DNA of 58,603 nt from Euryarchaeota archaeon UBA170 (GTDB taxonomy: Archaea; Thermoplasmatota; Poseidoniia; Poseidoniales; Thalassarchaeaceae): contig DALF01000050.1 of NCBI GenBank assembly GCA_002499345.1, positions 14,923 to 73,525 of the forward strand, read 5' to 3'. The position numbers and the translations under genes are program-made. Every line of letters begins with the position of its first letter. Positions within the stretch are counted from its first letter, which is position 1. The notes beneath the pieces were generated by a model. The model worked only from the letters and a program-made list of their open reading frames with translations. It ran no database searches and was not told the origin of the DNA. Positions 3,515 through 50,480 of this stretch are shown here, in pieces.

Positions 3515-4306
3515 TTAGTCCTCAATCCATGAAGCCCATGGCATCACAGTATTCGACAGACCAACTCCTGGCCCCTCATTTCCCAGTGCTATCAAGCCCA
3601 CGGAAGCGCCGTTCGGAATAAGCTCGTCCAGTCCCCAACGCATCGCCTCCATCAGCGAGTCGCACTGCGATGAGGATACCCTATTACTCACTCTGTAACT
3701 CAGTAGAGCCTTCGTAATCTCTTCTCCCTCTCCGGTGGCGGCAACAGATCTAGAATTCTCAACCCAGAAACCGGATCCCGGCAGGGGGACGTCACCTACT
3801 CTTCCGGGGGGCCTATGGCTACATCCGCCAGTACTGGTTGCGCATGCCATCTCCCCCGATGAGTCCCTGACGATGACCCCTACGGTATCTCCGTCTCCCT
3901 CAATCGGCTCCCTGCCCTCTACGGCCCTATTGACATGCCCTCTCTCGTCTGCCCACGCCCTTGCTCCTGAGCCAGTGAGGCCATTGATTGGCTCATCCAA
4001 AAGGCTCGCTGCCACTCGTATTGGGTTTGGCGTATCTGACATAGCTATGACAAATCCTATCCTTCCATCGCTAGTTTGTATTGAGGCGTCGAGTAGCACC
4101 GAGCCGTCATTCCTGAAGACCCCCCCGGTGCCAGCGTTGAATACCGGATCATCCTCCAAGATAACACATGCTTCGACTGCTGCCTCTATGGCGGACGATC
4201 CTGATAGGAGGAGCTCCGAGGCCACATCCACCGCTCTCTGCAGATTTGTTTGTCTTTCAGGCCCTGGACCGGCCCCTCCATGTGCCACGACCGCCATCTT
4301 CACCAT
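3515..4306 (-). CDS. isoaspartyl peptidase / L-asparaginase (Ntn-hydrolase, asparaginase-2 family)
   Basis: AVVAHGGAG N-terminus, GDTVGVIVRD (autoprocessing Thr region), ATSTGG, GEGEEI. Confidence 0.8.
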   Translation of the reverse strand: MVKMAVVAHGGAGPGPERQTNLQRAVDVASELLLSGSSAIEAAVEACVILEDDPVFNAGTGGVFRNDGSVLLDASIQTSDGRIGFVIAMSDTPNPIRVAASLLDEPINGLTGSGARAWADERGHVNRAVEGREPIEGDGDTVGVIVRDSSGEMACATSTGGCSHRPPGRVGDVPLPGSGFWVENSRSVAATGEGEEITKALLSYRVSNRVSSSQCDSLMEAMRWGLDELIPNGASVGLIALGNEGPGVGLSNTVMPWASWIED

Positions 4307-6482: not shown

Positions 6483-9400
6483 TCATCTGTCTCTAAAATT
6501 GGCACCACTGTAGAACTTGTCCAGATACTCTTCACCATAGTAATGCCACTGTTCCATGGTCCATCCGGGAGGGAGCCCCCCAGGAGGAAGAGGAGGGGTC
6601 ATTGGAGGAGGAGGCGGAGGAGCGGTATTGTAAACGGGTTTTGGGAGAATTTCCACAGGAGGTGGAAGATTAATCGCAGAGAGGGCTTCTTGATGATAAA
6701 TGGGGTTTCTCTTTGAGCTTCTCCTTGCGATAGAGTTGATGCCCCCTACCACGGCCACTAAAGCAATCAGAGCCACAACAGAAGCACTTGCTAGGAAAAT
6801 TGTGTCAGGAGATTCCTCGCCACTGTTATGCTGGTCATCGGGAGGCTGGCTTGAATCCACTCCTTGAGGAGCTACAGCATCGTACTTCATTTGCTCGGGC
6901 GTCCTTCTGTCGAAGCCGTTTTCATCCACTCCCCGGATGCTCAATGTGAAGTAATCCCCAGTACTGAGACCGCTTCCAGTGACTGGGAGAATGATGAAAG
7001 GACCCAGGTTGAATGAGGATCCAGCACTGTGGCAGATTCCTGTAATCTTGTTACAAACCGTCCAAGTCACCCTGATATCAGTCAGTGACTCATCGCCAAT
7101 GTTTGAGATTAACACGGTAGGAGTGTCCCCGATATCGAATGAGTCTATCTCTACCTCGAAGTTTTCATCCCAATCAAGCGGAATATCGTCGACAATCGTG
7201 TAACTCAGAGAGATGGTGGAAGATTCCCCATGGCGGTCTTCGGCAGTTATCTTAATACTGTCAGAACCTTCCTCTGGCCAGTTAGCAGTCATGATTCCGG
7301 TTATTGGGTCGTAAAACACTGCGCCTGGATAGTAGCTAGTTGCTGTTATCCAAATTTCTTCGTCTGGATCATCAATATCTGTAATCCTACTGATTAGATC
7401 TACTTCAGTTGTGACACCCATCTTCAAGGTGACATCTTCTATACCAGAAGTATCGATAATAGGGGCATCGTTGACATTCAAGACGTGGAAAGTTACTGTG
7501 GTGTCTGACGACTTATCGCCATCACTAGCCCTCAGAGAAATCTCCACGAGACCGTTTGAGTCGTCATCTAGTGAGTTGACGTTGATGGTTTGACCAAAAA
7601 TACTGGCTTCAACTAGGTTTTCATCGGATATCGACAATATTTCCACTGACACCCCTGAGACTGGGACCACTTGGCCATTATTGTTAGTATCAGATAGATA
7701 GTCAGTGAGGCCGAGACTAGCGGATCCTCCCTCGTGGAATGACTTGATGGGTATGGGTGACCACCTAGGTGCACCATTTTCTACGACATTGAACATCATC
7801 AAGCCAGTATTGGACTCATCCCCGTCATGGACACTGATTAGCATACCTTGTGGAATTGGTGAGCCTTGGCTATCGAGTAGTAGACTATCGAATCTTACCT
7901 CTATCTCTAATGAAGATGGGTTCCATCCTATGAACTCAGGCTCAGTGCTTGAGATTTCTAAATTGAAAAGAGAGGTTTCCGCGTCTGATACCAGTCCAAC
8001 TACTGAAACCATCTCACTGGTCTGCACCTTAACAGTAGGAACTCCGGCATAGGTCATGTCGCTATTGCCGAGTACTCTTGGCAGGGAGTTCTGTAGATAG
8101 AAGGCATTCTCGGAAGTTAGCCATTCACTTGTCTGCCCAGATGAGTCAGTCCATTTGATCCTTAGGTCATAGTACCCCATCGCTGCGTCTAGAGGAGTGT
8201 CGATGTCTAATGAATGCCTTGCATTATCACCTGATCCTATGATGGCGTGATTGGCAATCCAATCATTGCTCCACATGGAGGATGATGAGGGAGAGTATTC
8301 CAAAGATGGTTGCATAGTATATATGTCATCAACTAGATCATTGGAAATCGCTGAAACCTCGAAGCCAACTGCTGATCCCCTATCGACTGAAGTTGAGCCA
8401 CTAGAAGAAGGCTGGCTGGCGGTCGGTGGCATGTCATGCAAAGCGACCGCGTCTGAGATGTCGTTGGAAGGTCCCCGATCTCCGTCATTTCCTGAAATCT
8501 TTGCCCTAATTGTCGTTGATCCGAGAGCCGTTATATCGATATCAGTGGTATCCAAGAAAGCATTGTATGTGTGGAAACCGCCTACGGCGAAATCCCCTAT
8601 TGTGAAGGTGGATATCTCAATCTCGGATAGGCCGTCCATCCAGTTGATAGATAGTTGCCCACCCCCCTCATATTCCTCTACTCCATTGTTGGAAACTCTG
8701 CAAGAAATATCTAGAACATCTCCCGAAACGAATCCAGAGTTGCCATTTCTGTTTGAGATGATTATCTCTTCCACGCCTATGTCGACTAGAGGAATCATGC
8801 CCAAGTCTACAGCAGATAGGAAGTTGTTGTAGGTGGTGTGAGGACCATCCATCAATGCGAAAACGGGCCAGAAATTTTCGAACTGGGAGTACCCCCCACC
8901 AGCCCTTACTGCGCTCAGTGGGACTTGCCATGAGCTCTCTACGGGAGAATTAGGAGTTAGTGTGAGTTGTTCGAAGCCATTGTTGTGACTGGCCAGCATC
9001 CATTCCCTGAAACTGTGGTGGGGCTTTACGCCGTTGTCGTAAGCGTCGGGGCTGACCTTCTCAGTAATCGCCGCATACAGGAAAACTGATACTGAACTGA
9101 GGGAGCCCGTGTACATAGAATTTACAGTTACTGTTACTTGATTTGTGGATTGATCATATTGGACCTCCAACTGCATGGCGTAGTTTGACGTATCTGAATC
9201 CATACAACCTCCATTTGAATAGTCAGAGTCGTAATAATTTGTCCCCCCTGCGCCAATTTTGTAACATGTGCCTGATTGCTGGTCTGCAAAGGAAAATTTG
9301 GGAATTCCACCACCACCAGCTGAGACGTGGCTTCGGCGATTGATTGGACTATCATCAGGATAGCCGCTAGAGCTAGATTCGAAAAACGAAACAAAAGTGA

Positions 9401-9662
9401 AATCCTCGGGATTAGAGGACTTGAGGTTATCCAAAGATGGAGAGGCGCTACTCATGCATGGCCCACACCAGTGTGCGCCGACATATTCGCCAAATACGGG
9501 GTGTCCGGGGCTTGTTGCGAACATCTTTGCTTCAATCTGCTCTAATTCTTGCCTCTCTTGTATGGATTCTTCTACTGCACAAAAAGAGACAAATGAGGAT
9601 AGCAACATCAGTGAAACTAGAGTAAAGGAAGAAACGACCGCATAGGGAGTAGTATGCCTCAT
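6483..9662 (-). CDS. large type-I surface protein: thioredoxin-like WCGPC module, CARDB-like and cadherin-like domains, C-terminal TM, proline-rich cytoplasmic tail
   Basis: N-terminal signal/anchor (SSFTLVSLMLLSSFVSFCAV). VFGEYVGAHWCGPCMSS has a thioredoxin-type CxxC (nt 9456-9470). CARDB-like DISCRVSNNGVEEYEGGG. Cadherin-like hallmark FHVLNVNDAPIID. TM IFLASASVVALIALVAVVGGI. An 84-aa tail contains PPPPPPMTPPLPPGGLPPGW. Confidence 0.8.
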   Translation of the reverse strand: MRHTTPYAVVSSFTLVSLMLLSSFVSFCAVEESIQERQELEQIEAKMFATSPGHPVFGEYVGAHWCGPCMSSASPSLDNLKSSNPEDFTFVSFFESSSSGYPDDSPINRRSHVSAGGGGIPKFSFADQQSGTCYKIGAGGTNYYDSDYSNGGCMDSDTSNYAMQLEVQYDQSTNQVTVTVNSMYTGSLSSVSVFLYAAITEKVSPDAYDNGVKPHHSFREWMLASHNNGFEQLTLTPNSPVESSWQVPLSAVRAGGGYSQFENFWPVFALMDGPHTTYNNFLSAVDLGMIPLVDIGVEEIIISNRNGNSGFVSGDVLDISCRVSNNGVEEYEGGGQLSINWMDGLSEIEISTFTIGDFAVGGFHTYNAFLDTTDIDITALGSTTIRAKISGNDGDRGPSNDISDAVALHDMPPTASQPSSSGSTSVDRGSAVGFEVSAISNDLVDDIYTMQPSLEYSPSSSSMWSNDWIANHAIIGSGDNARHSLDIDTPLDAAMGYYDLRIKWTDSSGQTSEWLTSENAFYLQNSLPRVLGNSDMTYAGVPTVKVQTSEMVSVVGLVSDAETSLFNLEISSTEPEFIGWNPSSLEIEVRFDSLLLDSQGSPIPQGMLISVHDGDESNTGLMMFNVVENGAPRWSPIPIKSFHEGGSASLGLTDYLSDTNNNGQVVPVSGVSVEILSISDENLVEASIFGQTINVNSLDDDSNGLVEISLRASDGDKSSDTTVTFHVLNVNDAPIIDTSGIEDVTLKMGVTTEVDLISRITDIDDPDEEIWITATSYYPGAVFYDPITGIMTANWPEEGSDSIKITAEDRHGESSTISLSYTIVDDIPLDWDENFEVEIDSFDIGDTPTVLISNIGDESLTDIRVTWTVCNKITGICHSAGSSFNLGPFIILPVTGSGLSTGDYFTLSIRGVDENGFDRRTPEQMKYDAVAPQGVDSSQPPDDQHNSGEESPDTIFLASASVVALIALVAVVGGINSIARRSSKRNPIYHQEALSAINLPPPVEILPKPVYNTAPPPPPPMTPPLPPGGLPPGWTMEQWHYYGEEYLDKFYSGANFRDR

Positions 9663-9767: not shown

Positions 9768-10580
9768 ATGGAGAATAGCGAACCGGCTGAATGGCTGGCC
9801 CTCAGAGAGGATGATGGCAGGGCGTACCTTCTTTGTAGGGCCCCCGGAGAAGTCAAAGTGAAGGGACTAGGGAGATTCGATGCCGAGGAACTCCTAAGGG
9901 GATATTCAGTAGGTGACAGAATTACAGTGGGCCAGAAGTCGCTAACGATTGTTGCGCCTTCACTTCCCGAAGCTAGGAGGAATATGGCAAGAAGGGCCCA
10001 GGTCATCGGGGCTAAGGACTCGGGATTCCTGATTTCGTGGATGGGGATTGGGGTTGGTTCCAGAGTACTTGAAGGAGGCCATGGCTCCGGTGGACTGGCG
10101 ATGCATTTAGCCAATGTGATGGGAGCGGGAGGGACCTTGATATCTGTGGAGTCTAGATCCGAGCATGCAGAGGTAGGGAGGAAAAATATGGAAAGGCTGT
10201 CTGAAGTCCTTCCTGAGTTTCCCGAGTGGCATCTGGTAGAAGGAGATATCTCGAGTGTTGGAGAATTAGTGGTTGATAAGTGCGGCATGTTAGATGCGGC
10301 GATTATCGATATTGCAGAGCCTTGGGGCGTGATTCCCGACATAGAGCCTCTACTTAGAGCAGGCGGAAGGCTGGCTTGTTACTGCCCTACCACAATCCAA
10401 TTAGAAAAGTGCTGGGAAGCCGCTGAGGACAGGGGCTTGGTAGTAGAATGGGCTGGAGAGATGATAGAAAGAAGATGGGTGAAGGCCAGTAGAGGTGGAG
10501 TCAGGCCTGGCAATACCCCAATAGGGCATACTGCGTTCCTGCTGATTTCAGCCAAGGTAGCTAGTATTGAAGAGGAATGA
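9768..10580 (+). CDS. trmI: tRNA (adenine-N1)-methyltransferase, TrmI/Gcd14 family
   Basis: SAM-binding EGGHGSGGLAMHLA, DAAIIDIAEPWGVI and LLRAGGRLACYCPTTIQ. The stop overlaps the aspS start (ATGA). Confidence 0.8.
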   Translation: MENSEPAEWLALREDDGRAYLLCRAPGEVKVKGLGRFDAEELLRGYSVGDRITVGQKSLTIVAPSLPEARRNMARRAQVIGAKDSGFLISWMGIGVGSRVLEGGHGSGGLAMHLANVMGAGGTLISVESRSEHAEVGRKNMERLSEVLPEFPEWHLVEGDISSVGELVVDKCGMLDAAIIDIAEPWGVIPDIEPLLRAGGRLACYCPTTIQLEKCWEAAEDRGLVVEWAGEMIERRWVKASRGGVRPGNTPIGHTAFLLISAKVASIEEE

Positions 10581-12036: not shown

Positions 12037-12699
12037 ATGAGCCATATATTCATACAGTCCGAGGAAATCATGGGCTGGGAAGGTAGGAAGAGGGCCAGAT
12101 TCGTGAATAGCCTAAGCGGATTCAAGAGTGCCACATTGATAGGCACATCCCATCCCGAATTTGGAGATAATCTGTCAATAGTCTCCTCCGTTGTTCACCT
12201 AGGATCCACTCCCCCTATGATGGGATTCGTGCTGAGACCTCCAGGCGAGGATGCACATACTTACAAAAATATCAAGTCGACAGGAGTTTGTACATTTAGT
12301 CATGTAAATGTAGATATTATTGAGAAAGCCCATCAGACCAGCGCGAGGTATCCGAGAGAGAGTAGCGAGTTTGATGAAGTAGGGCTCACTCCCAGGAGAG
12401 TAGAAAATTGGCTGGCTCCTTCTGTTGAAGAGGCCCATGTGAGGATGGGGTTGACCCTACTAAATGATACAGAGCTGGTAAATGGATGCAGGTTCATGAC
12501 TTGCTCTGTAGAATGGTTTGAGTTAGAGTCGGATGGAATGTGCGGGGATGGTTATGTGGATCTGAGCAGTATGGGCGGAGTTACAATTTCAGGTCTTGAT
12601 GGATATCATAAGACACCGGGGATTAGCAGGCTTTCATATGCAAAAATTAATCGTGAAATAGATAAAATAACTGATTTTAGAGCTGGATGGCCAGAATAG
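12037..12699 (+). CDS. flavin reductase family protein (split-barrel FMN-binding fold)
   Basis: FVNSLSGFKSATLIGT ... VHLGSTPPMMGFVLRP ... TYKNIKSTGVCTFSHV ... KAHQTSARYPRESSEFDEVGL matches a flavin-reductase-like family I remember from Bacteroidota. Confidence 0.65.
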   Translation: MSHIFIQSEEIMGWEGRKRARFVNSLSGFKSATLIGTSHPEFGDNLSIVSSVVHLGSTPPMMGFVLRPPGEDAHTYKNIKSTGVCTFSHVNVDIIEKAHQTSARYPRESSEFDEVGLTPRRVENWLAPSVEEAHVRMGLTLLNDTELVNGCRFMTCSVEWFELESDGMCGDGYVDLSSMGGVTISGLDGYHKTPGISRLSYAKINREIDKITDFRAGWPE

Positions 12700-12713
12700 G
12701 CATGTGTTGGCTA

Positions 12714-12719
12714 TTTTTT
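12714..12719 (+). terminator. oligo-T tract, possible archaeal terminator/attenuator
   Basis: TTTTTT lies 15 nt after the TAG of the 12037-12699 gene. Archaeal RNA polymerase terminates at oligo-T. It is the only obvious T-run inside the 9.8-19.2 kb same-strand gene array. Confidence 0.25.
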
Positions 12720-12771
12720 AGTCACTCGGCAGAGGACCGAAAATAACGGGTATGTGTGCCCCCTCCGGAAT

Positions 12772-13503
12772 ATGAGCGACATGGCCAAGCCGAGGTTTGT
12801 ATTTCTGCTATTGAAGGAACATCCGTATGGGCGTGAGATGCTCAAGCAGCTACTCTCCGAAGGTCATTCTCCCGTACTGATAATAGAGGAAGATTCACCA
12901 GTTGCCGACGAAGAAAGAGAGAAATTTATGGAGAGGATTGCAGGTAATGAAATAGCTCCTACTATTGAAGATCAAACACTTAGAAATGGGATTCCGGTAG
13001 TGACGGTCCCCATACACAATTCATCTAAAGTCATGCCCCATATAGAAGAAATGGACCTAGACCTAATTGTATTTGGCGGCACCAGGATAATTAGAGGGGA
13101 TATTCTTGATTTCCCTAAGGACGGGGTTGTTAACTCACACCCGGGCCTTCTACCAGAGTGCAGAGGGTCTGCGTCCCCAGCATGGTCGGTCTACCATGAC
13201 ATTCGGGTAGGGTCAACCTGTCATTTCTGTGACAATGGAATTGATACTGGCGAGATTCTACTCAGGAGAGAGTTCCCCGTGGAGCGTGGAATGACATATG
13301 AGGACCTCTGTTATGGGACACTAGTTCTCTCAGGAGTGTTGATGAAGGAGGCACTGATTGCATACGATAATGGAGAGTGGGCAGCGATGCGCAGACCACA
13401 GGGAGCCAGTGAGTTCCCAACATTCAGGAATGCCCCGGAAGAAGTACTTGATGCAGTCAGAGAAAAGCTCAGTGAAGAAGAGTACGCACATTACGTTGAC
13501 TAG
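12772..13503 (+). CDS. formyltransferase-family protein (N-terminal Formyl_trans_N-like domain only)
   Basis: VVNSHPGLLPECRGSASPAWSV corresponds to the H.SLLP..RG formyltransferase motif. It has no Fmt-type C-terminal domain. Candidate starts: GTG 12754, ATG 12772, ATG 12781. Confidence 0.6.
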   Translation: MSDMAKPRFVFLLLKEHPYGREMLKQLLSEGHSPVLIIEEDSPVADEEREKFMERIAGNEIAPTIEDQTLRNGIPVVTVPIHNSSKVMPHIEEMDLDLIVFGGTRIIRGDILDFPKDGVVNSHPGLLPECRGSASPAWSVYHDIRVGSTCHFCDNGIDTGEILLRREFPVERGMTYEDLCYGTLVLSGVLMKEALIAYDNGEWAAMRRPQGASEFPTFRNAPEEVLDAVREKLSEEEYAHYVD

Positions 13504-13511
13504 GTGAAAAA

Positions 13512-14312
13512 ATGGGAAAAAATCTCTTAGAAAGTGATTTCCCCTTTGCCGAGGGGATTCTTAATGGAAAGACGGCACTAGTATGTGGGGCCTCCAAGGG
13601 AATCGGAAGAGCCACAGCATTGGTTCTTGCTAGAGCGGGATGTAGGATAATTGCGTGTGCTAGATCGGTAGAAGATCTTGAGTCACTTATGATAGAAATG
13701 CATGGATCGGGGCATGAATATCTGGCATTAGATATGGAGAGCCTGGAGTCAATTTCTTCTTCAGTGTCAGATTTAGGCACTGTGGACATACTTGTGAATA
13801 ATTCTGGAGGCCCCCCCGGAGGGCCATTACTCGGCAATACAGTTCAGGATTTTGAGGGCCCGTTCACGAGGCATCTGCACGCCTCACACATCCTGACAAA
13901 AGAACTGGTACCTGGGATGGAAAAATCAGGAAGCGGCAGAATTGTGAATATTATCTCCACATCAGTTAGGGAGCCTATCGACAACATAGGACTTTCAAAC
14001 ACCTTGAGAGGTGCCATGGCATCATGGTCAAAGTCGCTCTCTCGGGAATTGCCAGCTTGTATAACAATTAACAATATTCTTCCGGGATTCACAGACACCG
14101 ATAGGCTAGGCTCTCTCGCTAATTCTATCTCATCGAAGACTGGCATTGGGATCGAAGAAGTTCAGAAAAACTGGATTAATAGTGTTCCAATTGAGAGGTT
14201 GATTGACCCTCTAGAAACTGCAATTGCGGTTGCATGGCTGTGCCTTCCATCTAGTGGGGCCGTGAGAGGCGTAAGTCTTGCTGTAGATGGCGGCAGAATG
14301 CGTTCCATATGA
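13512..14312 (+). CDS. short-chain dehydrogenase/reductase (SDR)
   Basis: TALVCGASKGIGRATALVLARAG (TGxxxGxG-type NAD(P) site), NNSGG, NNILPGFTDT. Confidence 0.85.
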   Translation: MGKNLLESDFPFAEGILNGKTALVCGASKGIGRATALVLARAGCRIIACARSVEDLESLMIEMHGSGHEYLALDMESLESISSSVSDLGTVDILVNNSGGPPGGPLLGNTVQDFEGPFTRHLHASHILTKELVPGMEKSGSGRIVNIISTSVREPIDNIGLSNTLRGAMASWSKSLSRELPACITINNILPGFTDTDRLGSLANSISSKTGIGIEEVQKNWINSVPIERLIDPLETAIAVAWLCLPSSGAVRGVSLAVDGGRMRSI

Positions 14313-14320
14313 GGGATAAA

Positions 14321-15562
14321 ATGGAGTTCGATATTTTCTTCTCCATTTCACAGACGCCAGACACCTCTGGCTTTATCCCCAGTGAGAGTGAGATGTTCTC
14401 CAACTTCCTAAATCAGGCCGAACATGCCGATAAGCTTGGATTTGGAATTGGCTGGATAGCTCAGGCTCACCTATCAACAGAGATACAGAAAAGAAATACA
14501 AATCCAGTAGTTCCACATTACCCGGGAGAGGTGGGACTTTGTACTGACTTCTTCCAGATCGCTCAGAAGGTTCTCTCTCGGACGGAAACGATGGAAGTCG
14601 GTAGCGCGGTAATGAGTATCCTAGCTTCTGGCGGCCCTATTGCTCAAGCAGAGAGAGTTGGGTCATTCCTATCCTTACACGGACTTGATTCCGATGAGTC
14701 AAGGAGGTTGCATATTGGATTCAGCGCAGGGAGATTTGAGTTCATGGCCAGGCCGTACGGAATAGTTCCTCGAGACCCCGTGGAGGAAGCGGCGTGGCCC
14801 GCCCTTAGAGGAAGAGTTTTCGCAGAGGCATCTGAGATATTCCTCCGATTACTCAGAGGTGATGTTTTATCTAGCGATATGATAGGGAAGACCGTATTGA
14901 CCAGAGCCAACTTCAGGAGCGATGAAGATTGGTCCAGAGTCCAACAGGAGGCCGCATCATACCATAGTTTGAGTGATTTGCCCGATTCAATTGAAATCAG
15001 AAATAGATATAATTTCGAGGAAATAAAGATAATTCCTCAAGATTGGAACAGAGATCTTCTGAATTTAGTTCTTGGAAGTCACGACCCTATTTTACAGAAA
15101 GAGGTAAATCAGTGGATTCCTGTTCAGGTATTCAACCTCTCAATAACCCCACCAAGAATAATAGAGGAGACGCATGAGAGAATGAGGGAGTCTTACCACA
15201 GGGATGGCGGCCCATGGGAGCGGTCAATGATGCCTCGTACTATCATGATTTTCATTAACGAAGAGGATGGCTTGAGTTCAGAAGAGAGGAGCTCTGAGGC
15301 TAAAATTGAGGCTAAATCTGCTCTTTCTACATATTGGAGCGCCTTGGAAGGGACCATTGACCCTTCAAAAGTTGACAGGGCCGTAGACAACGCAGTAATA
15401 GGTAACGCTGAGGAAGTGGCACAACAAATTATTGAGAGGTTTGATTCCAATGATCGTTTGATGTGCTGGTTTGATTTCTTCAACCATGACAGTGAGAGAG
15501 TGATGAGGAACATGACTGCATTCATGACCAAGGTAGTACCCCGAATCAATGGAGGGACGTAG
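14321..15562 (+). CDS. luciferase-like (LLM-class) flavin-dependent monooxygenase/oxidoreductase
   Basis: MEFDIFFSISQ ... AEHADKLGFGIGWIAQAHLS ... VGSAVMSILASGGPIAQAERV ... IGFSAGRF resembles the LuxA/SsuD-type TIM barrel. An alternative ATG at 14309 overlaps the SDR stop (ATGA). ATG 14321 is preceded by GAGGG. Confidence 0.65.
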   Translation: MEFDIFFSISQTPDTSGFIPSESEMFSNFLNQAEHADKLGFGIGWIAQAHLSTEIQKRNTNPVVPHYPGEVGLCTDFFQIAQKVLSRTETMEVGSAVMSILASGGPIAQAERVGSFLSLHGLDSDESRRLHIGFSAGRFEFMARPYGIVPRDPVEEAAWPALRGRVFAEASEIFLRLLRGDVLSSDMIGKTVLTRANFRSDEDWSRVQQEAASYHSLSDLPDSIEIRNRYNFEEIKIIPQDWNRDLLNLVLGSHDPILQKEVNQWIPVQVFNLSITPPRIIEETHERMRESYHRDGGPWERSMMPRTIMIFINEEDGLSSEERSSEAKIEAKSALSTYWSALEGTIDPSKVDRAVDNAVIGNAEEVAQQIIERFDSNDRLMCWFDFFNHDSERVMRNMTAFMTKVVPRINGGT

Positions 15563-16735
15563 ATGGGAGGCCGGGATAACGTTCCTTCTTCAGTATCTCC
15601 TGGAAGGCCTGGATCGTCTCTTTATCCCTCTAATCCACTGGGCGAAAGGCACGAGGGAATAGCCACAGGAAGAGATGTTGAATGGGAGCCTTTGGTAGAT
15701 TTTCGAAGGATGGACATCTCGGAGAATACAATACATGGCGCAATAGCTTGGGCCCATGGGAATGAAATTATACATTCATTCGGAGGAAACGTTCTGGTGT
15801 ACGGCAGATCAATGATGAAGCCATTCACAATGAAAGTCTTCAGCGAGGCCCTCTCTGATGCTGGCCTAAGTACGGAACAAATGGCGATTTCATGCTCATC
15901 TCATAATGGGGATACTGAACACGTTGCTGCGGCTCAGTCCATGCTGAGTGAATCAGAATGGGGGCTGATGCAATGCCCATTAGATGTCCCATTAATCCAG
16001 TTTGGAAGGCAGGTAAGGAGACCTAGGAGATGGTTTCATACATGCTCTGGAGAACATGCCGCGATGCTCAAAGGAATGAGACTGATGGGAATTAGTAGAG
16101 CTGGTTACACTCTCCCTAGCTCCGGCTGGTTTCCATTGTACCTAGATGTACTCAGAAGGATGATGGGCAAGCCTGATTGGGAGCCTTTGAGAGTAGCAAA
16201 GGATGGGTGTGGCCTTCCTACAGTATCGAATACTGTAGATGAGTTGGCAGTAATGATGGCAGGACTGGCTTTTGAGAAAGACGATGACTGGATTTGGAAT
16301 GCGATGACTGAGCACCCAGATCTGGTAGGGGGCTTCAACAGACTGGATTCAACCTGCCTGAAGGCGGGCGGGGGTAAAATCTTGGCTAAGGAGGGAGCGG
16401 ATGGTTTACTAGGCCTTTCCGTGGATCATCCCGACTGGCCAAATGGCCTGGGGATAGTAATCAAAATAGCCCATGGTTGGAATAGTCAGGCTACTTGGTA
16501 TGTCGCTAGGGCCGTCTTGGGAGTATTGGGCGTCGAACTAAGAAACCCATATCCTTTGCATCGTCAGAAGGCGTTTATTGTTCCAGGAATTGTTCCCGAT
16601 AGTATGAGAGAAGCTCTTGAAGAGGTTGTCACTTGGGACGAATGGGACCCCGATAGAGACAGATTCTCGATGGACTGGAGAGATTATTCTGACGGAGCGA
16701 CTCGAGAAAGCCCCTTTGCTAATGAGGGGTCCTGA
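15563..16735 (+). CDS. asparaginase-II (PF06089-like, beta-lactamase-fold) family protein
   Basis: Motifs GRSMMKPFT, CSSHNGDTEH and CSGEHAAMLKG parallel the remembered RSSAKPFQ / SHSG / CSGKHAGML signature. The ATG directly abuts the preceding TAG. Confidence 0.6.
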   Translation: MGGRDNVPSSVSPGRPGSSLYPSNPLGERHEGIATGRDVEWEPLVDFRRMDISENTIHGAIAWAHGNEIIHSFGGNVLVYGRSMMKPFTMKVFSEALSDAGLSTEQMAISCSSHNGDTEHVAAAQSMLSESEWGLMQCPLDVPLIQFGRQVRRPRRWFHTCSGEHAAMLKGMRLMGISRAGYTLPSSGWFPLYLDVLRRMMGKPDWEPLRVAKDGCGLPTVSNTVDELAVMMAGLAFEKDDDWIWNAMTEHPDLVGGFNRLDSTCLKAGGGKILAKEGADGLLGLSVDHPDWPNGLGIVIKIAHGWNSQATWYVARAVLGVLGVELRNPYPLHRQKAFIVPGIVPDSMREALEEVVTWDEWDPDRDRFSMDWRDYSDGATRESPFANEGS

Positions 16736-18168
16736 TGAAAATACTGAACTATATCAAGGGTAAATTTAACGAGCCGATATCCTCAGAATGGATGGATAAT
16801 TTTTCACCTTCTACTGGGAAGGTTATCGGAAGTATTCCTCTATCGGGGGATGCTGATGTCATATCTGCAATCGCCGCCGCTAAGGGTGCTCTTCCGGAAT
16901 GGAGTAGTCTTGACCCGTCTGATAGGGCTCTTTGGCTGGATAAGATAGCTGACTGCCTGGAGGAGAAATTCGAGGAGATCGCACACTTAGAGAGCATGGA
17001 TACTGGGAAGCCCATATCTCTGGCCCGTTCGGTTGATGCAAGGAGATCGGTCTCAAACTTCAGATTCTTCTCAGAAATGATCAGAGATAGGGAAGAGGAG
17101 GTATTTGAGATGGAAGACGCCACTAATATAGTGAAGCTTAGAGCTGTCGGAGTTGGTGCTCTAATCACTCCTTGGAATCTCCCTCTGTACCTCCTTTCAT
17201 GGAAGGTTGCTCCGGCCATTGGCATGGGCAACACCGTAGTCTGTAAACCGAGTGAGCTGACCCCACTAACTGCTGACCTCCTGATGAGGGTAATAGACGA
17301 GGTGGGCCTACCGCCTGGCGTGGTCAATCTCGTTCATGGAAATGGTAATGCAGGGTCAGTACTTACTGGGAATCCAGATGTAGACCTTGTCTCATTCACC
17401 GGAGGGACATCTACTGGTTCAAAGGTAGCAATGTCTGCATCTCCTCAATTCAAGAAGTTGAGTTTGGAACTGGGTGGCAAGAATTCGAGTATAGTATTCT
17501 CAGATTGTAATCTGGAAGAAACAGTCAAAGGAGTTACTAGAGCCGCATTTCTGAATCAGGGGCAGGTTTGTTTGTGCGGCTCTAGGATACTCGTGGAAGA
17601 ATCGATCTATGATCAATTCATGGATATGTTCGTAGAGTCCGTAGAGTCGATGGTAATTGGCGACCCGATGGATGAGGATACCGACCTAGGGGCCTTGATT
17701 TCCAAGCAACACTTGGAGAAGGTTGAGAGTTATGTATCACTAGCTCTGGAGGAGGGTGGACAAATAGTAACCGGAGGTAAGCCGTGCTTACCGAAAGAAT
17801 TGGAAGGTGGAAATTGGATGTCTCCCACAGTAGTGACTGGCCTGGGAACCGAATCGAGATGCTCGACTGAGGAGGTCTTCGGTCCATTTGTTACCGTGCA
17901 TAGGTTCAATTCCGAAGAAGACGCAATAAAAATTGCAAATAATACGAGATACGGGCTAGCTGGCAGTATTTGGACTGGCGATTTGGAACGGGGCAGAAGG
18001 GTGGCCGAGAGTATCCATACTGGGATGATTTGGGTAAATACTTGGCTACACAGGGATCTTCGGGTGCCTTTTGGGGGAATTAAAGATAGCGGAGTTGGAA
18101 GAGAAGGCGGCAAATGGAGCTTGGGATTCTTCTCAGAGCCCCTTAATGTATGCCTAAAGCACGATTGA
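16735..18168 (+). CDS. NAD(P)-dependent aldehyde dehydrogenase
   Basis: LITPWNLPL, ELGGKNSSIVF (catalytic Glu), GQVCLCGSR (catalytic Cys), EEVFGPF. The start overlaps the previous stop (TGATG). Confidence 0.9.
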   Translation: MKILNYIKGKFNEPISSEWMDNFSPSTGKVIGSIPLSGDADVISAIAAAKGALPEWSSLDPSDRALWLDKIADCLEEKFEEIAHLESMDTGKPISLARSVDARRSVSNFRFFSEMIRDREEEVFEMEDATNIVKLRAVGVGALITPWNLPLYLLSWKVAPAIGMGNTVVCKPSELTPLTADLLMRVIDEVGLPPGVVNLVHGNGNAGSVLTGNPDVDLVSFTGGTSTGSKVAMSASPQFKKLSLELGGKNSSIVFSDCNLEETVKGVTRAAFLNQGQVCLCGSRILVEESIYDQFMDMFVESVESMVIGDPMDEDTDLGALISKQHLEKVESYVSLALEEGGQIVTGGKPCLPKELEGGNWMSPTVVTGLGTESRCSTEEVFGPFVTVHRFNSEEDAIKIANNTRYGLAGSIWTGDLERGRRVAESIHTGMIWVNTWLHRDLRVPFGGIKDSGVGREGGKWSLGFFSEPLNVCLKHD

Positions 18169-19193
18169 TGCACAAGACTGTAAGAATGAGAGTGGGCGGG
18201 CCATTGATTAGAATGGCACCTGTTGGAATCATCGGAGTTGGCTCATACGTCCCGCCGCATGAAATGAGTAATGATGATTGGTCGGAAATCGTGGATACTA
18301 GTGACGAGTGGATTACTACCAAGACCGGTATGAAAAAAAGGAGGATTGCCGACCCCAGTACATGTACGTCTGACTTAGCCGTTGAGGCCTGCAGAGTGGC
18401 ATTAGAAAACTCTGGACTAACGGCCTCCGATATCGATTTGATAATACTGGCAACTTCTTCGCCAGATGTCCCTATGTCTTCGACGGCCGGGATAGTCCAG
18501 GATAAGCTAGGTTGCTCCGATTGTGTTGCTTTTGACATCAATGCGGTATGTGCTGGTTGGGTTCACGCACTGGATATAGGTTCTAGATTTGCAGGGACAG
18601 CAGGTTATGAAAATGTACTGGTTGTCGGATCCGAGGTATATTCGAGGATCCTGAATTGGAAAGATCGTTCGACTTGTGTACTGTTTGGGGATGGCGCGGG
18701 AGCTGTGGTACTTTCCCAAGTACCAGAGGGGAAGGGAATTATTGGATCGTGGATGATGAGCGATGGTTCTGGATCTAGTGTTATTGAGATTCCAGCAGGA
18801 GGGGTCAGAACTCCGATCCCCAGTGAGGGTTTCAAAGAGGGGATGCAATACTTTCACATGGATGGGAGGGCTGTTTGGGACTTTGCGATCGAAGCGTTTC
18901 CTCAAGCCGTGTTATCAGTTCTCGAAAGATATGGCAAAACTATAGATGAGGTTGACCTTATTCTACCTCATCAGGCTAACATAAATATCATTGAGAAGGG
19001 AATGGAAAAGCTAGGACTTCCCATGGACAGGGCGTTCACGAATCTCCATAAGTATGGAAATACAGCTGGAGCGAGTGTCCCTATTGCTATGCACGAGGCA
19101 TTCGAAGAAATGAAGATAGTAGAAGGGGATCTAGTCGTCACCGTTGCATTTGGTGGTGGCTTGGCATGGGGCGCTAATCTCATTCAGTTCTAG
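18168..19193 (+). CDS. fabH: 3-oxoacyl-ACP/CoA synthase III (FabH-like KAS III)
   Basis: GSYVPPHEMSNDDWSEIVDTSDEWITTKTGMKKRR, NAVCAGWVHAL (Cys), LPHQANINII (His), YGNTAGASVPIAM (Asn). The maximal ORF starts at 18150. ATG 18168 forms TGATG with the ALDH stop. ATG 18213 is also possible. Confidence 0.85.
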   Translation: MHKTVRMRVGGPLIRMAPVGIIGVGSYVPPHEMSNDDWSEIVDTSDEWITTKTGMKKRRIADPSTCTSDLAVEACRVALENSGLTASDIDLIILATSSPDVPMSSTAGIVQDKLGCSDCVAFDINAVCAGWVHALDIGSRFAGTAGYENVLVVGSEVYSRILNWKDRSTCVLFGDGAGAVVLSQVPEGKGIIGSWMMSDGSGSSVIEIPAGGVRTPIPSEGFKEGMQYFHMDGRAVWDFAIEAFPQAVLSVLERYGKTIDEVDLILPHQANINIIEKGMEKLGLPMDRAFTNLHKYGNTAGASVPIAMHEAFEEMKIVEGDLVVTVAFGGGLAWGANLIQF

Positions 19194-22100
19194 TTGACAG
19201 GGCCCCAAGACCCAGTGGACTGGTTGAATGAGAGGATTGATCCATCTGGATTCTGACAGTACACATTACCCGTATTGTCAACCCAAACAAGTTGCCCGTT
19301 TTCGTTCATCTTAGCGTCACTGGGAGGCTTTGGTTCGGTTCTTCCTCCATCTGAAGGGAGAGATGTAGAGCTGGGGACGGAGACATTTGAGTATATTTTG
19401 GACTCATTAGTTACCTCGCCGGAATCATTGGATTGAGAGAATAATGACTGCTCTTTTTCTCCTCTTCTCCTGACAAAGAGTAAACCTCCGAGAGAACCGA
19501 TCACTACCACAGAAATCAGTGCTACTAAGATTAGCATTGTTGTTGATTCCTCGGCTACCTGCCTATCAGGGTCGTTTGGGAATGCATCTCCATTGTCTCC
19601 TACGCCATCTAGGTCTGAGTCCAACCACTCAAATGGATTCAGGGGGAAGTCATCTACGCCATCCATGAATCCGTCATCATCAGAATCCGGATCGGTAGCA
19701 CTGGTATTTCTCGCATCTTCCTCCATATCAGATGAGCCGTCATTGTCATCATCAGAATCTGAGTTGTCCCCTACGCCATCCAAATCATTATCATTCCACT
19801 CAGTCGAATCTAGTGGGAGGGCATCTAGTAAATCAGGGAATCCATCATTGTCATCGTCATCATCCTCTTCAGAATCCTTACAGCCGTCTGAATCGTTGTC
19901 GGTATCCACTGTGCTGGTCCACCCTACTAGACCCAGTGTACACCCGTCGACGATATCGTTAATTCCATCACCGTCATCATCCAAATCCACTTCATCATGG
20001 AGTCTATCTCCATCTGAGTCTAGAAGGCAATCATCGACCGATGTAGAGGATTCTTGCAGGGTAATCATATCCTCTGGACAAGATTCTGTAGCTATACTTC
20101 GTGCCGATGTTACAAACTGATCGAATGGGGCGGGGGCCTGTTGGGCCTGCCCCTTTTCGGATACGAAGAATCCTGGGTCTGCATCTATGCATGTAGATTG
20201 GCCCGAGGATGGCTGGTAAGTTCCCTGCAGACATTCTTCTTGTGACACTGATGCTTCAGACGAAGTGAAGAACCCTGGGTTCGTATCTAGGCAAGTGGTT
20301 TGTCCAGGGGATGGCTGATAAGTTCCAGACAAACATGGATTCTGCTCATTGGAGCCTTCAGAGAGTACGTAGTGACCTGGTTCGGATGAAATACAGGAAA
20401 TCTGCCTAGTCTGATTCTGATAGCTCCCCGGTGAACACGGAGTCTGCCCGGAAGAACCGGGAGAGGAGACATAGTGTCCCTCATCTGATTCTAGGCAATC
20501 TGACTGGCTTGTTGCTGATTCGTCGGGATTGTAAGTTCCCACGGGACATGGATTTTGAGAAGTGGACATTTCGGAGTCTACATAGAAGCCCGGATCAGCA
20601 TTGATACAATTTTGCTGGCCCATTGAAGGTTGATACTCTCCTGCCTGACATTCTTGTTGGCCATCTTCTCCTGATAATTCGACAAAATGCCCAGGATCTG
20701 CCTGCAAGCATGATACTTGCCCGGCATAAGGCTGATACTCGCCCGGAGAACATAGATTCTGGTAAGACGCTCCGAGAATTGCTGAGTAGTTGCCCGGATC
20801 AGCTTCGAGACAAGCCGCGGAGCTATTTGCCCTGGATACTGGATTATAGGTCCCAAGGGAGCAGGGAATCTGGGTAGAAGATGCGTTGCTATCTGTGTAG
20901 TACCCGGGACTGGCCTCTAGACATTCAGAGAGTCCGACCTGATTGGCCCAATAACCAGGAGGGCAGGGAGAAGCGAATATGGCCCCCCCTGAGCCGACAA
21001 AGTAGCCTGGAGGAGCCGGAGTGCAAGAAACCTGTCCAGACATAGATTGGTAGAACCCAGGAGTGCAGGGGATCTGGTAAGATGAGGCATTGGCGGGGAC
21101 CGCATGCCCCGGGTCCGCATCAAGGCAAGATTGGGAACTATTGGCCGCGCCCGCTGGATTGTATGTGCCAGCGAGGCAGGGAGTCTGTGTGGTGGACCCT
21201 GCCTGTTCTACGTAGTGTCCAGGATCTGCGTCTATACAATCTGTTGCCGCGAAAGAAGGCTGGAAAGATCCGGGCTGGCAAGGTGTTTGCGAGGAAGACG
21301 CATTCGATGGGACATGGTTTCCAGGGGTCGCCAGCAGGCACAGTGTCTGATTCGAAGACGGCTGATAGAAACCGGGATCACAGGCTATTTGTGAGGTGCT
21401 TGCAGTCCCAGGCACGACATACCCCGGAGATGAAGATAGGCAGGATTGCTGAGCAGACAGTGGCTGATAATATCCCGGATCGCAGGGGATTTGGGATGTC
21501 GAGCTATAGTTAGGGACGTAATATCCGGAAGAGGCATCAATACACGAGGTGGAGCCATTAGAAGGCTGATACTCCCCGGGTGAGCAGGCGGCCTGACTGA
21601 CGGACCCGGATGAGAATACATAGAATCCAGGATCTGCTACCAGACAGCTAATTTGGGCAAATGAGGGCTGATATTTCCCAGGGGAACATTGAGTCTGTGA
21701 AGTAGCTCCTGGATTGGCGACAAAATTACCCGGTAAAGCAGGAGTCTGGGATGTGGCGCCGGATTGAGATACATAGTATCCTTGTTGAGCGCTTAAACAC
21801 GACGATTGTCCTGTTAGAGGTTGATAATTGCCAGGAGTGCATAGCTCCTCAGATGTCGCGCCGACACTAGAGACATATCTGCCAGTAGAAGCAGAATCGC
21901 ATGAACCGCTACCAGTTTTTGCCTGATACGTTCCTAGCTGACACTGGAAGAATCCGACTTGAATCTCTGCGTCTATTGACTCTGATTGATTACCTATAGT
22001 GGAGTCGTCGATGATTGACTTCAGAGTAAGTGTAAATGTATAATCCCCGGAGCTTGAATTATTGGGAGTAACTGAAATCAGTAATATCGAAGAACTATTG

Positions 22101-26356: not shown

Positions 26357-27634
26357 TCACCGCTTCGACTGTTTCCTTCGTCCGCCTCTATCTCTACTAG
26401 AGCCACTAGGGGATGACTCCTCGACTACTATCTTCCGACCTTTAATTTCTGAACCATTCATGGCCTTGATAGCTGCCTTTGCATCATCTTTAGAGGGGAA
26501 AGTGACAAATGCGAATCCCTTAGACTTTCCAGAGTCTCTATCCTTGGCGATGTGTATGGAGTCGATTTTTCCATGCTCCGAGAATGCTTTGGATAGTTCT
26601 TCCTCCGATATTTCGTATGGGAGCCTACCAACAAATAGCTTGGATCCCATTTTCTCCTCGAGCTTCCCCCTCATGGCAGATATTGTCTCCCTCTCTTTGG
26701 ATAGCTCTTCTTTAGTGGCATTTCCACCCTTGACCTTGTCCATACAGTCTCTACATCTTATTGGCTTGCCGGGAGTTGGTTTGAATGGCACCTTTGTTTT
26801 AACCCCGCACATCGTACAAACTGCTTCGTGCATGTCCCTTCTAGGCCTACTCTGGCCCCCTCTTCCACCACCGCGGCTAGAAGACCTCATGGATGCCACC
26901 CTAGGCGGGATATCGTGATTTGCACCTCTTCGGAAGTCAGCTAGAGGAGAAAGGTATGGCCGGGCTCCATCATGACCTAGTTTCGCTTCTGCCTCGGGAG
27001 ACCATCTTTCTCCGGATCTGTTCAGTTTGTGTAGACCGAAGCCAGTTTCGTGGCCATGGCCAAAACCATCTGAGAGAACTCGATAGGCTGTATAGTCACA
27101 TCTTGAGCATTCTACATTGAAATCGATTTTCTTATCCGATACGTCCAGCATTACTCCACAGGCGGGGCAAGATGCAGATAATACTCCTAAGGATATGTCG
27201 CCCTTTGTTGAGGCTTTAAGGATAGGATCATCCTTGACTATTCTAGCTCTGACAATATCTCGCATCCTCATAGCATCACCAGGGGACGGAATGAATCTGT
27301 CAACGACTTCAGAGACATGTATATCAGCAAATAATTGAAGGGCCGGGAGGCTCCTGTGCCCTCCTTGCTTGCTCTCGACGTGTAGGATTCTAATCTCGGC
27401 GACGTTCTCGTTCAGTCTCGTTACCTGTCCGATCACTACATCATCAACAGAAGGAGAGTTTATGGGTGGCCTAGATGACTCTACGGAGATATTTCCATCC
27501 TTCTCTACAAGAGTTCCGGGGAGCGTGGCTATGCATCTTCCGTTCTTCTCAAAAATACCTTCTCCAACAGAGGATTCTGATGGAATAGTTACTGTGGAAC
27601 CGGGTGTAACTTGATCACCAACTACGGCAGACAT
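26357..27634 (-). CDS. csl4: exosome cap subunit Csl4 fused to RGG box, CxxC-x17-CxxC zinc knuckle and RRM domain
   Basis: The Csl4-like N-domain, S1 domain and Zn ribbon are supported by VIGQVTRLNENVAEIRILHVE ... CPACG ... CSRCDY. These are followed by SRGGGRGGQSRPRR, then CTMCGVKTKVPFKPTPGKPIRCRDC. A canonical RRM follows (RNP2 LFVGRL, RNP1 KGFAFVTF). The ORF-track start 27664 is TTG; ATG at 27634. Confidence 0.8.
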   Translation of the reverse strand: MSAVVGDQVTPGSTVTIPSESSVGEGIFEKNGRCIATLPGTLVEKDGNISVESSRPPINSPSVDDVVIGQVTRLNENVAEIRILHVESKQGGHRSLPALQLFADIHVSEVVDRFIPSPGDAMRMRDIVRARIVKDDPILKASTKGDISLGVLSASCPACGVMLDVSDKKIDFNVECSRCDYTAYRVLSDGFGHGHETGFGLHKLNRSGERWSPEAEAKLGHDGARPYLSPLADFRRGANHDIPPRVASMRSSSRGGGRGGQSRPRRDMHEAVCTMCGVKTKVPFKPTPGKPIRCRDCMDKVKGGNATKEELSKERETISAMRGKLEEKMGSKLFVGRLPYEISEEELSKAFSEHGKIDSIHIAKDRDSGKSKGFAFVTFPSKDDAKAAIKAMNGSEIKGRKIVVEESSPSGSSRDRGGRRKQSKR

Positions 27635-27677
27635 TGACCGGGCGACCAGCCGTTCCCCTATCAACGGTACGGAGGAA

Positions 27678-50422: not shown

Positions 50423-50480
50423 CGGTGTTAAAATACGTCTTAGAACCGATTCATTCTAGTTACAACACGGAGTGTTGAGT

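Follow-up and report, generated by a model that had tools for sequence, protein, structure and literature searches.

We analyzed a 58.6-kb stretch of DNA from Euryarchaeota archaeon UBA170 (contig DALF01000050.1, positions 14,923 to 73,525; the whole stretch is referred to here as the window) and propose that five adjacent genes within it encode the middle of a kynureninase-independent route from tryptophan and kynurenine to 2-aminomuconate by way of 2-aminophenol. The genes encode a formyltransferase-like protein (fmt-like), a short-chain dehydrogenase/reductase (SDR), a luciferase-like monooxygenase (LLM), an Asparaginase_II-like protein (AsnII) and an aldehyde dehydrogenase (ALDH). The proposal is the best explanation that we can offer for the data as a whole, and we give it an even chance of being right; that the genes belong to a branch linking the kynurenine pathway to meta cleavage of 2-aminophenol we regard as likely. 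The organism is a Marine Group IIb (MGIIb) archaeon of the Thalassarchaeaceae: homologs of its LLM carry the names Candidatus Thalassarchaeaceae or Poseidoniales, and the 80 best genome loci all come from Marine Group II (MGII).

Gene neighborhoods in archaea and bacteria

The original prediction had described seven consecutive genes, from a flavin reductase gene to a gene for KAS III, as one pathway unit. The seven open reading frames, with their strand and coordinates, were all present when the + strand of the window was checked, and the families to which they had been assigned were borne out in every case by Pfam or NCBIfam, although NCBIfam gave no specific family for the flavin reductase, the LLM or AsnII. 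The features are as follows.

12037..12699, + strand: flavin reductase (flr); Pfam Flavin_Reduct, 55 bits
12736..12768, + strand: conserved noncoding box, directly 5' of the fmt-like gene
12781..13503, + strand (alternative starts at 12772 and 12754): fmt-like protein; Pfam Formyl_trans_N, N-domain only, 49 bits
13512..14312, + strand: classical SDR; Pfam adh_short, 109 bits
14321..15562, + strand (alternative start at 14309): LLM; Pfam Bac_luciferase, 28.8 bits against a cut-off of 27.9
15563..16735, + strand: Asparaginase_II-like protein (AsnII); Pfam Asparaginase_II, 160 bits against a cut-off of 25
16735..18168, + strand: NAD-dependent ALDH; Pfam Aldedh, 539 bits
18213..19193, + strand (longest open reading frame from 18150): FabH-type KAS III; above the NCBIfam FabH cut-offs

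Comparison with 80 species-level MGII loci, in which the LLM is 73 to 95% identical to that of the window, established that a real unit exists but that it comprises five genes and not seven. The gene order is conserved well beyond this genome: as far as their contigs extend, the loci keep fmt-sdr-llm-asnII-aldh without exception, and the DNA 5' of fmt is rearranged among them. The conserved unit is therefore the box together with fmt, sdr, llm, asnII and aldh, from 12736 to 18168, and neither flr nor the KAS III gene is a conserved member. The flr gene, whose product has a solved relative in 3fge (4e-51), was found in 9 of the 61 related loci covering aspS through fmt (about 15%); in other species, either nothing or unrelated genes, in one orientation or the other, lie between aspS and fmt. 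It is plausibly a lineage-specific accessory gene whose product could supply FMNH2 to the LLM. The KAS III gene usually follows aldh, is separated from it in about 10 MGII species by an opposite-strand gene for a 453-aa ATPase, and is missing beside the cluster in L072, L229, L058 and L060; it is probably a neighboring gene with no part in the pathway. Homologs of flr and of KAS III were absent from all 80 of the bacterial LLM loci to which we now turn.

These bacterial loci were gathered with an alignment led by distant members of the LLM family, and the LLM and AsnII genes were scored as adjacent when an AsnII homolog lay within 400 bp after the LLM gene. Adjacency was found in 20 of the 25 loci from Oligoflexales-like genomes, 10 of the 16 from the Bdellovibrionota/Myxococcota-like group and 21 of the 39 from Thermoanaerobaculia, and an LLM gene followed by an AsnII-like gene is seen across four phyla. 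In the Bdellovibrionota/Myxococcota-like group, a gene for tryptophan 2,3-dioxygenase (TDO) lies beside the pair in 10 of the 16 loci, and sequence encoding the kynurenine formamidase KynB (Cyclase family) is present in 13; in 10, the KynB domain either is fused to the AsnII-like protein or follows it directly. The fusion proteins are 519 to 558 aa long (for example, L119:11197-12756), and for those of 519 to 532 aa Pfam confirms the combination of Asparaginase_II with Cyclase. One operon, found in L115, L119 and L120, brings together LigB-alpha and LigB-beta, RidA, ALDH, two FAA_hydrolase-family proteins, LLM and AsnII::KynB, and in Thermoanaerobaculia the arrangement LLM-AsnII-ALDH-AmnB-AmnA::RidA occurs in 21 loci, with KynB next in 11 of these. 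The suggestion that the ALDH and the LLM act in one pathway is supported. The same type of ALDH accompanies the LLM-AsnII pair in bacterial clusters. As with flr and KAS III, no homolog of fmt or of the SDR was found in any of the 80 bacterial loci, and neither the genes of the window nor the recurrent neighbor families annotated by Pfam or by eye included kynureninase, KMO, 3-HAO or ACMSD. We would assign the conversion of kynurenine to 2-aminophenol to LLM and AsnII because they are the only constant candidate between TDO or indoleamine 2,3-dioxygenase (IDO) with formamidase, on the one side, and the 2-aminophenol set on the other.

The MGII archaea also have genes for the cleavage of 2-aminophenol. 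A LigB-type MGII protein has as its nearest relatives the beta subunits of 2-aminophenol and 2-amino-5-chlorophenol 1,6-dioxygenases (3e-107), and a search for AmnB-AmnA-RidA triads gave 338 species-genome hits, the best 80 of which were all from MGII; at least 38 metagenome-assembled genomes were common to the triad and LLM lists. On the contig that they share, some 110 kb typically separates the triad from the LLM locus. In L229, the two sets are joined as fmt-sdr-(TPR)-llm-asnII-aldh-(small membrane gene)-AmnB-AmnA-RidA-amino-acid permease, and in L200 they are joined as asnII-aldh-...-AmnB-AmnA. In L072, the AmnB, AmnA and RidA genes stand divergently upstream, and an IDO gene (Pfam, 324 bits), located at L072:7274-8386 (equivalent to L242:8001-9110) in one MGIIb species, directly precedes fmt. 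When IDO, TDO, AmnBA, RidA and KynB were sought in the window and the 80 MGII LLM loci, only L072 had them. The cluster of the window is a partner of the amn genes and is not itself an amn operon.

Two features of the MGII amn loci deserve separate mention. An amino-acid permease of the APC family that has EF-hand motifs at its C terminus is encoded one to three genes 3' of AmnB-AmnA-RidA (L229:10244-11959; cluster D5 in L162-L241) and is a candidate importer of the pathway substrate. The MGII RidA has an N-terminal Gly/Ala-rich extension of about 85 aa that is missing from its bacterial homologs (L175:9836-10486; cluster D1 in L162-L241).

The view that genes of this cluster are bacterial in type, expressed in the original prediction, agrees with the identities that we obtained. 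The MGII LLM, AsnII and ALDH are 52 to 65% identical to their Thermoanaerobaculia homologs, and the range becomes 46 to 65% when AmnB, AmnA and RidA of the MGII relatives are added. This degree of similarity supports a putative inter-domain transfer of the LLM, AsnII and ALDH genes in the distant past; the GC content of the cassette (0.46 to 0.48) is the same as that of its surroundings, and any transfer must therefore be old.

Enzymes and the proposed route

On sequence comparison, the ALDH is closest to 2-aminomuconate-6-semialdehyde dehydrogenases of the AmnC/NbaE type. Such enzymes are its closest solved relatives (4u3w, 4npi and 4i1w; 447 to 452 bits, E of 1e-134), compared with 415 bits for hydroxymuconic semialdehyde dehydrogenase and 344 bits for betaine-aldehyde dehydrogenase, and the best NCBIfam model is that for 2-hydroxymuconic semialdehyde dehydrogenase, with a score below the equivalog cut-off (542 versus 693).

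The LLM is an isolated protein. Its match to the family model PF00296 is marginal and covers the N-terminal half only, a sequence search of the PDB returned only luciferase alpha (E of 0.017), and the family is small, with 318 hits at an E of 1e-3 or less among 1.84 billion cluster representatives (exhaustive HMMER search). The AF2 model (pLDDT of 86, pTM of 0.86) has the TIM-barrel fold of LLM proteins, and Foldseek aligned it with a probability of 1.0, TM scores of 0.6 to 0.75 and about 15% identity to structures that include 2i7g, 7bip, 1luc, 8cbb and MsuD, with RslO1 and luciferase among them; the model is confident but is without a close functional neighbor. We suggest from its genomic company that the LLM could be an FMN-dependent Baeyer-Villiger monooxygenase acting on kynurenine or N-formylkynurenine. 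Baeyer-Villiger catalysts with the LLM fold are established, as in the cases of 3,6-diketocamphane monooxygenase (PMC4631483) and a progesterone LLM (PMC12239570). A 1,501-aa protein, P0123, was also encountered in which an N-terminal member of the LLM family (46% identity) is joined to domains of the GATase-like and ApbE (flavin transferase) types.

The AsnII-like protein is a homolog of the class 3 asparaginases, its best solved relative being ReAV (7os3; 64.5 bits, E of 7e-17). With residue roles taken from the work on ReAV (PMC12292245), the Ser48-Lys51 and Ser80-Lys263 tandems were found to be invariant in the window protein and 12 LLM-linked homologs, and Cys135 and Cys189 of ReAV are conserved. 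The gene context argues for a beta-aspartyl substrate other than L-asparagine. The predicted reaction is the hydrolysis of a beta-aspartyl aryl ester, or of the N4-aryl-asparagine that would arise from it by rearrangement, to L-aspartate and 2-aminophenol, a role that we consider because ester and anilide are both beta-acyl derivatives of aspartate and contain the type of bond that asparaginase-type hydrolases cleave. A second, unrelated asparaginase (Asparaginase_2, plant type, PF01112) is encoded at 3515-4306 on the - strand of the window, 8 kb 5' of the cassette.

The fmt-like protein heads the conserved block in all MGII loci. It has 243 aa and consists of a formyltransferase N-domain in which the NSHPGLLPECRG motif and a downstream Asp are found, the NSH...D catalytic motif being present, and among solved structures it is nearest to the hydrolase domain of 10-formyl-tetrahydrofolate dehydrogenase (4qpd, 3.7e-13). 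The bacterial clusters have a kynurenine formamidase instead and no fmt homolog. We would make the fmt-like protein the stand-in for that formamidase because its gene is first in the operon and lies directly 3' of the IDO gene in L072 and because the protein is closest to that hydrolase domain; it may deformylate N-formylkynurenine or N-formyl-aminophenol, either hydrolytically or with transfer of the formyl group to tetrahydrofolate. The SDR is conserved in position in all MGII loci, and a sequence search of the PDB found only generic, FabG-like solved relatives.

Taken together, these assignments suggest the following sequence of events. N-formylkynurenine would be the product of an IDO or TDO whose gene lies elsewhere or would be taken up from seawater, and the fmt-like enzyme would strip it of its formyl group, replacing the kynurenine formamidase of the bacterial clusters. 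Kynurenine is an aryl ketone, 2-aminophenyl-CO-CH2-CH(NH2)-COOH. With reduced FMN, the LLM could form a flavin peroxide and carry out a Baeyer-Villiger oxygenation of this ketone with migration of the electron-rich aryl group, giving the beta-(2-aminophenyl) ester of L-aspartate, from which an O-to-N acyl shift can give N4-(2-hydroxyphenyl)-L-asparagine. The class 3 asparaginase homolog would then cleave the beta-aspartyl derivative to L-aspartate and 2-aminophenol. The ring would be opened by AmnB/AmnA (2-aminophenol 1,6-dioxygenase), whose genes in this lineage are located away from the cluster, the resulting 2-aminomuconate-6-semialdehyde would be oxidized to 2-aminomuconate by the ALDH of the window, and a RidA-type deaminase would yield 4-oxalocrotonate. 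The AsnII::KynB fusion is consistent with loss of the formyl group ahead of the LLM step and equally with its loss once AsnII has acted. What the LLM, AsnII-like and fmt-like proteins use as substrates, and whether deformylation or oxygenation comes first, are points that we infer. That a branch of this kind, independent of both pyridoxal phosphate (PLP) and kynureninase, operates in hundreds of species of MGII, archaea that are abundant in the surface ocean, and in Bdellovibrionota, Myxococcota and Thermoanaerobaculia, with an fmt homolog in place of the formamidase and possible salvage of the formyl group, is a proposal that we advance tentatively, at a little below even confidence.

Boundaries and surroundings of the cluster

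A single transcript with coupled translation had been postulated from the junctions between the genes. The T6 tract 3' of flr and the junction strings ATGA, TAG|ATG, TGATG and TGATG are all in the sequence, but two of the four couplings need upstream starts that are not conserved. Homologs of the LLM begin at MEFD, corresponding to position 14321, 8 nucleotides past the stop codon of the SDR gene, and KAS III homologs begin at MAPVGIIG, corresponding to position 18213, 44 nucleotides past the stop codon of aldh; with these starts, coupling is lost at the ATGA junction and at one of the two TGATG junctions. The flr gene is uncoupled from the remaining genes because a spacer of 72 to 81 nucleotides, containing the T6 tract and the strongly conserved box, separates it from fmt. 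Farther upstream, a trmI-like gene (9768-10580) shares an ATGA overlap with aspS, which is 11 nucleotides from flr; the tight codirectional run thus begins already at trmI-like and aspS, and spacing alone defines no unit. Close gene spacing is here partly a trait of genome compaction. Contigs from four oligo-dT marine RNA libraries, at 99% identity, span the fmt/sdr, sdr/llm, llm/asnII and aldh/kas junctions; these contigs are of low depth, are unstranded and may include DNA, and they are weakly consistent with cotranscription.

The 5' boundary of the conserved unit is marked by the box, which has the form ACCGAAAATAACGGGTAT-N5-CCCCTCCG at 12736-12768 of the window and is also given as ACCGAAAATAACGGGTAT-N5-CCCCCTCCGG. 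With up to three mismatches allowed in its 18-mer, one copy was found in 68 of 81 MGII loci, with nearly invariant nucleotides, and always immediately 5' of fmt, whichever gene precedes; the sequence 5' of the box is unrelated between lineages. The box is not a common word within the window, did not occur at the AmnB loci or at the bacterial ones, and had no match in Rfam. Its conservation and position suggest that it is probably an operon-specific element at the DNA level, a putative promoter or operator. An RNA element or riboswitch was considered and rejected: in addition to the negative Rfam result, the only structure from Alifold was a 4-bp hairpin with no compensatory changes, and z-scores averaged -0.43.

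The remainder of the window is made up of archaeal housekeeping genes and genes for giant secreted proteins. Four giant proteins, probably secreted or located at the surface, are encoded at 19190-24418 (- strand; RCC1 and ephrin-receptor-like repeats), 36757-41583 (+ strand; a subtilase with CARDB), 50472-54584 (+ strand; PKD repeats) and 6483-9662 (- strand; no family match). The first of these genes is convergent to the KAS III gene and overlaps its stop codon by 4 nucleotides. A 435-aa protein encoded at 26357-27664 on the - strand combines an RRM_1 motif (86 bits) with a treble-clef zinc finger; to our knowledge, RRM domains are uncommon in archaea.

Alternative readings and known systems

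Several observations weigh against the route that we propose. The 58.6-kb window is without a tryptophan dioxygenase, AmnBA or RidA, and close relatives of the MGII IDO come from only two MGII species in all, the next being those of Phycisphaerae at 65 to 70% identity (genome scan), a distribution which suggests that the gene was recently gained by horizontal transfer. Neither of the MGII loci, LLM or AmnB, has a 4-oxalocrotonate decarboxylase or hydratase nearby. The Oligoflexales-like loci contain the LLM-AsnII pair without any aromatic-pathway neighbor, nothing in the bacterial clusters corresponds to the fmt-like protein or the SDR, and the proposed route gives the SDR no step. The LLM has no detectable relation in sequence to known type II Baeyer-Villiger enzymes, which are not its closest matches in fold either, and no diketocamphane monooxygenase title appeared among its top 50 fold matches. 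The zinc site of ReAV, Cys135-Lys138-Cys189, is incomplete in the AsnII-like protein of the window: both Cys residues are present, and the zinc ligand Lys138 is replaced by Glu here and in the MGII and Thermoanaerobaculia homologs, with Lys retained in homologs of the Bdellovibrionota/Oligoflexales type. The specific chemistry, namely, a Baeyer-Villiger LLM followed by an AsnII with beta-aspartyl amidase or esterase activity, is drawn entirely from context, and we put it forward with somewhat less than even confidence.

The alternative that survives best retains the pathway context and changes the chemistry. The LLM might hydroxylate kynurenine, or it might convert anthranilate to 2-aminophenol by oxidative decarboxylation, and AsnII might serve as an amidase or deformylase for a different intermediate. 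The same neighborhood evidence fits this possibility, the AsnII::KynB fusion speaks for a shared pathway only and not for the bond that AsnII cleaves, and the LLM is not specifically near known Baeyer-Villiger LLMs. However, no locus has a recurrent kynureninase-type gene to supply anthranilate, a serine hydrolase without PLP is poorly suited to cleavage of the C-C bond of kynurenine, deformylation is already covered by KynB or the fmt-like protein, and homology to a hydrolase of the beta-carboxamide of aspartate best fits a beta-aspartyl product. We consider such alternative chemistry rather unlikely.

The scarcity of IDO in MGII and the lack of a tryptophan dioxygenase in the window lend themselves to another explanation, that the MGII cluster degrades some other dissolved aryl ketone or N-acyl-aminophenol, not the cell's own tryptophan, and yields 2-aminophenol or a substituted analog for AmnBA and the ALDH; the link to tryptophan dioxygenases seen in bacteria would then not extend to the archaea. 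Both fmt and sdr are additions specific to MGII, and the amino-acid permease conserved beside AmnB-AmnA-RidA points in the same direction. Against this stand the 52 to 65% identity of the LLM, AsnII and ALDH to Thermoanaerobaculia genes that sit with KynB and the fact that the tryptophan dioxygenase gained in MGII landed directly 5' of fmt; moreover, the pathway would be no different if free kynurenine or formylkynurenine were taken up. A different substrate seems to us improbable.

That the genes are merely in synteny because the genome is compact, their enzymes being unrelated and sharing no pathway, would be in keeping with the trmI-like and aspS genes upstream, which are equally tight and also syntenic across the family, but the LLM-AsnII(-ALDH) linkage spans archaea and three bacterial phyla where other synteny is gone, the block moves as a unit beside AmnBA in L072, L229 and L200, and it has its own conserved upstream box; we regard this explanation as very improbable. 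The two earlier readings, oxidative attack on C-S, C-N or C-H bonds of an alkyl substrate by a two-component LLM, with oxidation of alcohol and aldehyde to follow, and synthesis of an N-formylated acyl product primed by KAS III, are scarcely credible, even though the family resemblances hold and flr adjoins the cluster in the window: flr and KAS III are not conserved members, KAS III being separable or absent in several lineages, no acyl carrier protein or Fab gene, nor any regulator or transporter, lies adjacent, exactly as the original prediction had noted, the ALDH is of the aminomuconate-semialdehyde type, and the recurrent partners (tryptophan and indoleamine dioxygenases, KynB, 2-aminophenol 1,6-dioxygenase and 2-aminomuconate deaminase) all belong to the catabolism of aromatic amines or tryptophan.

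If the kynureninase-independent route through 2-aminophenol is correct, a new route would be added to the catabolism of tryptophan and kynurenine, which is among the most studied of pathways, by enzymes that all come from known superfamilies. In the literature searched, there was no role for an LLM or an asparaginase II in kynurenine or 2-aminophenol metabolism, no kynurenine pathway in MGII and no description of such a route, in line with the expectation that the system is an undescribed one. An isolated LLM family would gain its first function, as would a widespread "asparaginase II" subfamily whose members are probably not asparaginases. The conservation in uncultured marine archaea of a 2-aminophenol pathway known from pollutant degraders would be explained, and a concrete substrate would be provided for MGII, whose diet of organic matter is still largely inferred; kynurenine and formylkynurenine are products of tryptophan oxidation and photo-oxidation in surface seawater. 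The analysis also corrects the operon boundaries to which automatic annotation based on spacing alone would lead.

The elements of the proposed route have parallels in known systems. The type II Baeyer-Villiger monooxygenases (3,6-diketocamphane monooxygenase, the progesterone LLM and AbmE2/AbmZ) share the fold class of the LLM and provide a precedent for conversion of a ketone to an ester followed by hydrolysis (PMC4631483; PMC12239570), but the LLM of the window has no detectable sequence relation to them, and its fold is no closer to theirs than to those of luciferase, SsuD and MsuD. The class 3 L-asparaginases ReAV and ReAIV of Rhizobium etli resemble AsnII in Pfam family, in fold, in both Ser-Lys tandems and in the two Cys residues; AsnII differs in being paired with an LLM, in its frequent fusion to KynB, in its low similarity and in its predicted substrate, a beta-aspartyl aryl ester or anilide instead of asparagine. 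The 4-hydroxyacetophenone pathway likewise proceeds by Baeyer-Villiger oxygenation of an aryl ketone with aryl migration, hydrolysis of the ester to a phenol and dioxygenolytic ring opening, in that case of hydroquinone, with the difference that its monooxygenase, HAPMO, belongs to type I and depends on FAD and NADPH and its aryl-acetate esterase is an alpha/beta hydrolase, whereas an LLM and an asparaginase-fold protein are predicted here and the acyl part would be aspartate. The canonical kynurenine pathway has in common with the related clusters TDO or IDO, KynB and an AMSDH-type ALDH; in these clusters, LLM-AsnII and a LigB-type 2-aminophenol dioxygenase would replace kynureninase, KMO, 3-HAO and ACMSD, and in MGII the fmt-like gene stands where bacteria have KynB. 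The amn pathway of Pseudomonas and Burkholderia (AmnBA, AmnC, AmnD and AmnE/F) is matched by the AmnC/AMSDH-like ALDH of the window, by AmnB/AmnA and RidA in the MGII relatives and the bacterial clusters and, in Bdellovibrionota-like loci, by the two FAA_hydrolase-family enzymes as well. In the known examples, 2-aminophenol comes from nitrobenzene or is itself the growth substrate, and the window lacks an adjacent dioxygenase and deaminase; here, the amn-type genes are instead joined to those for an LLM, a class 3 asparaginase homolog and the tryptophan dioxygenase and formamidase, an association that would feed 2-aminophenol into ring cleavage from kynurenine.

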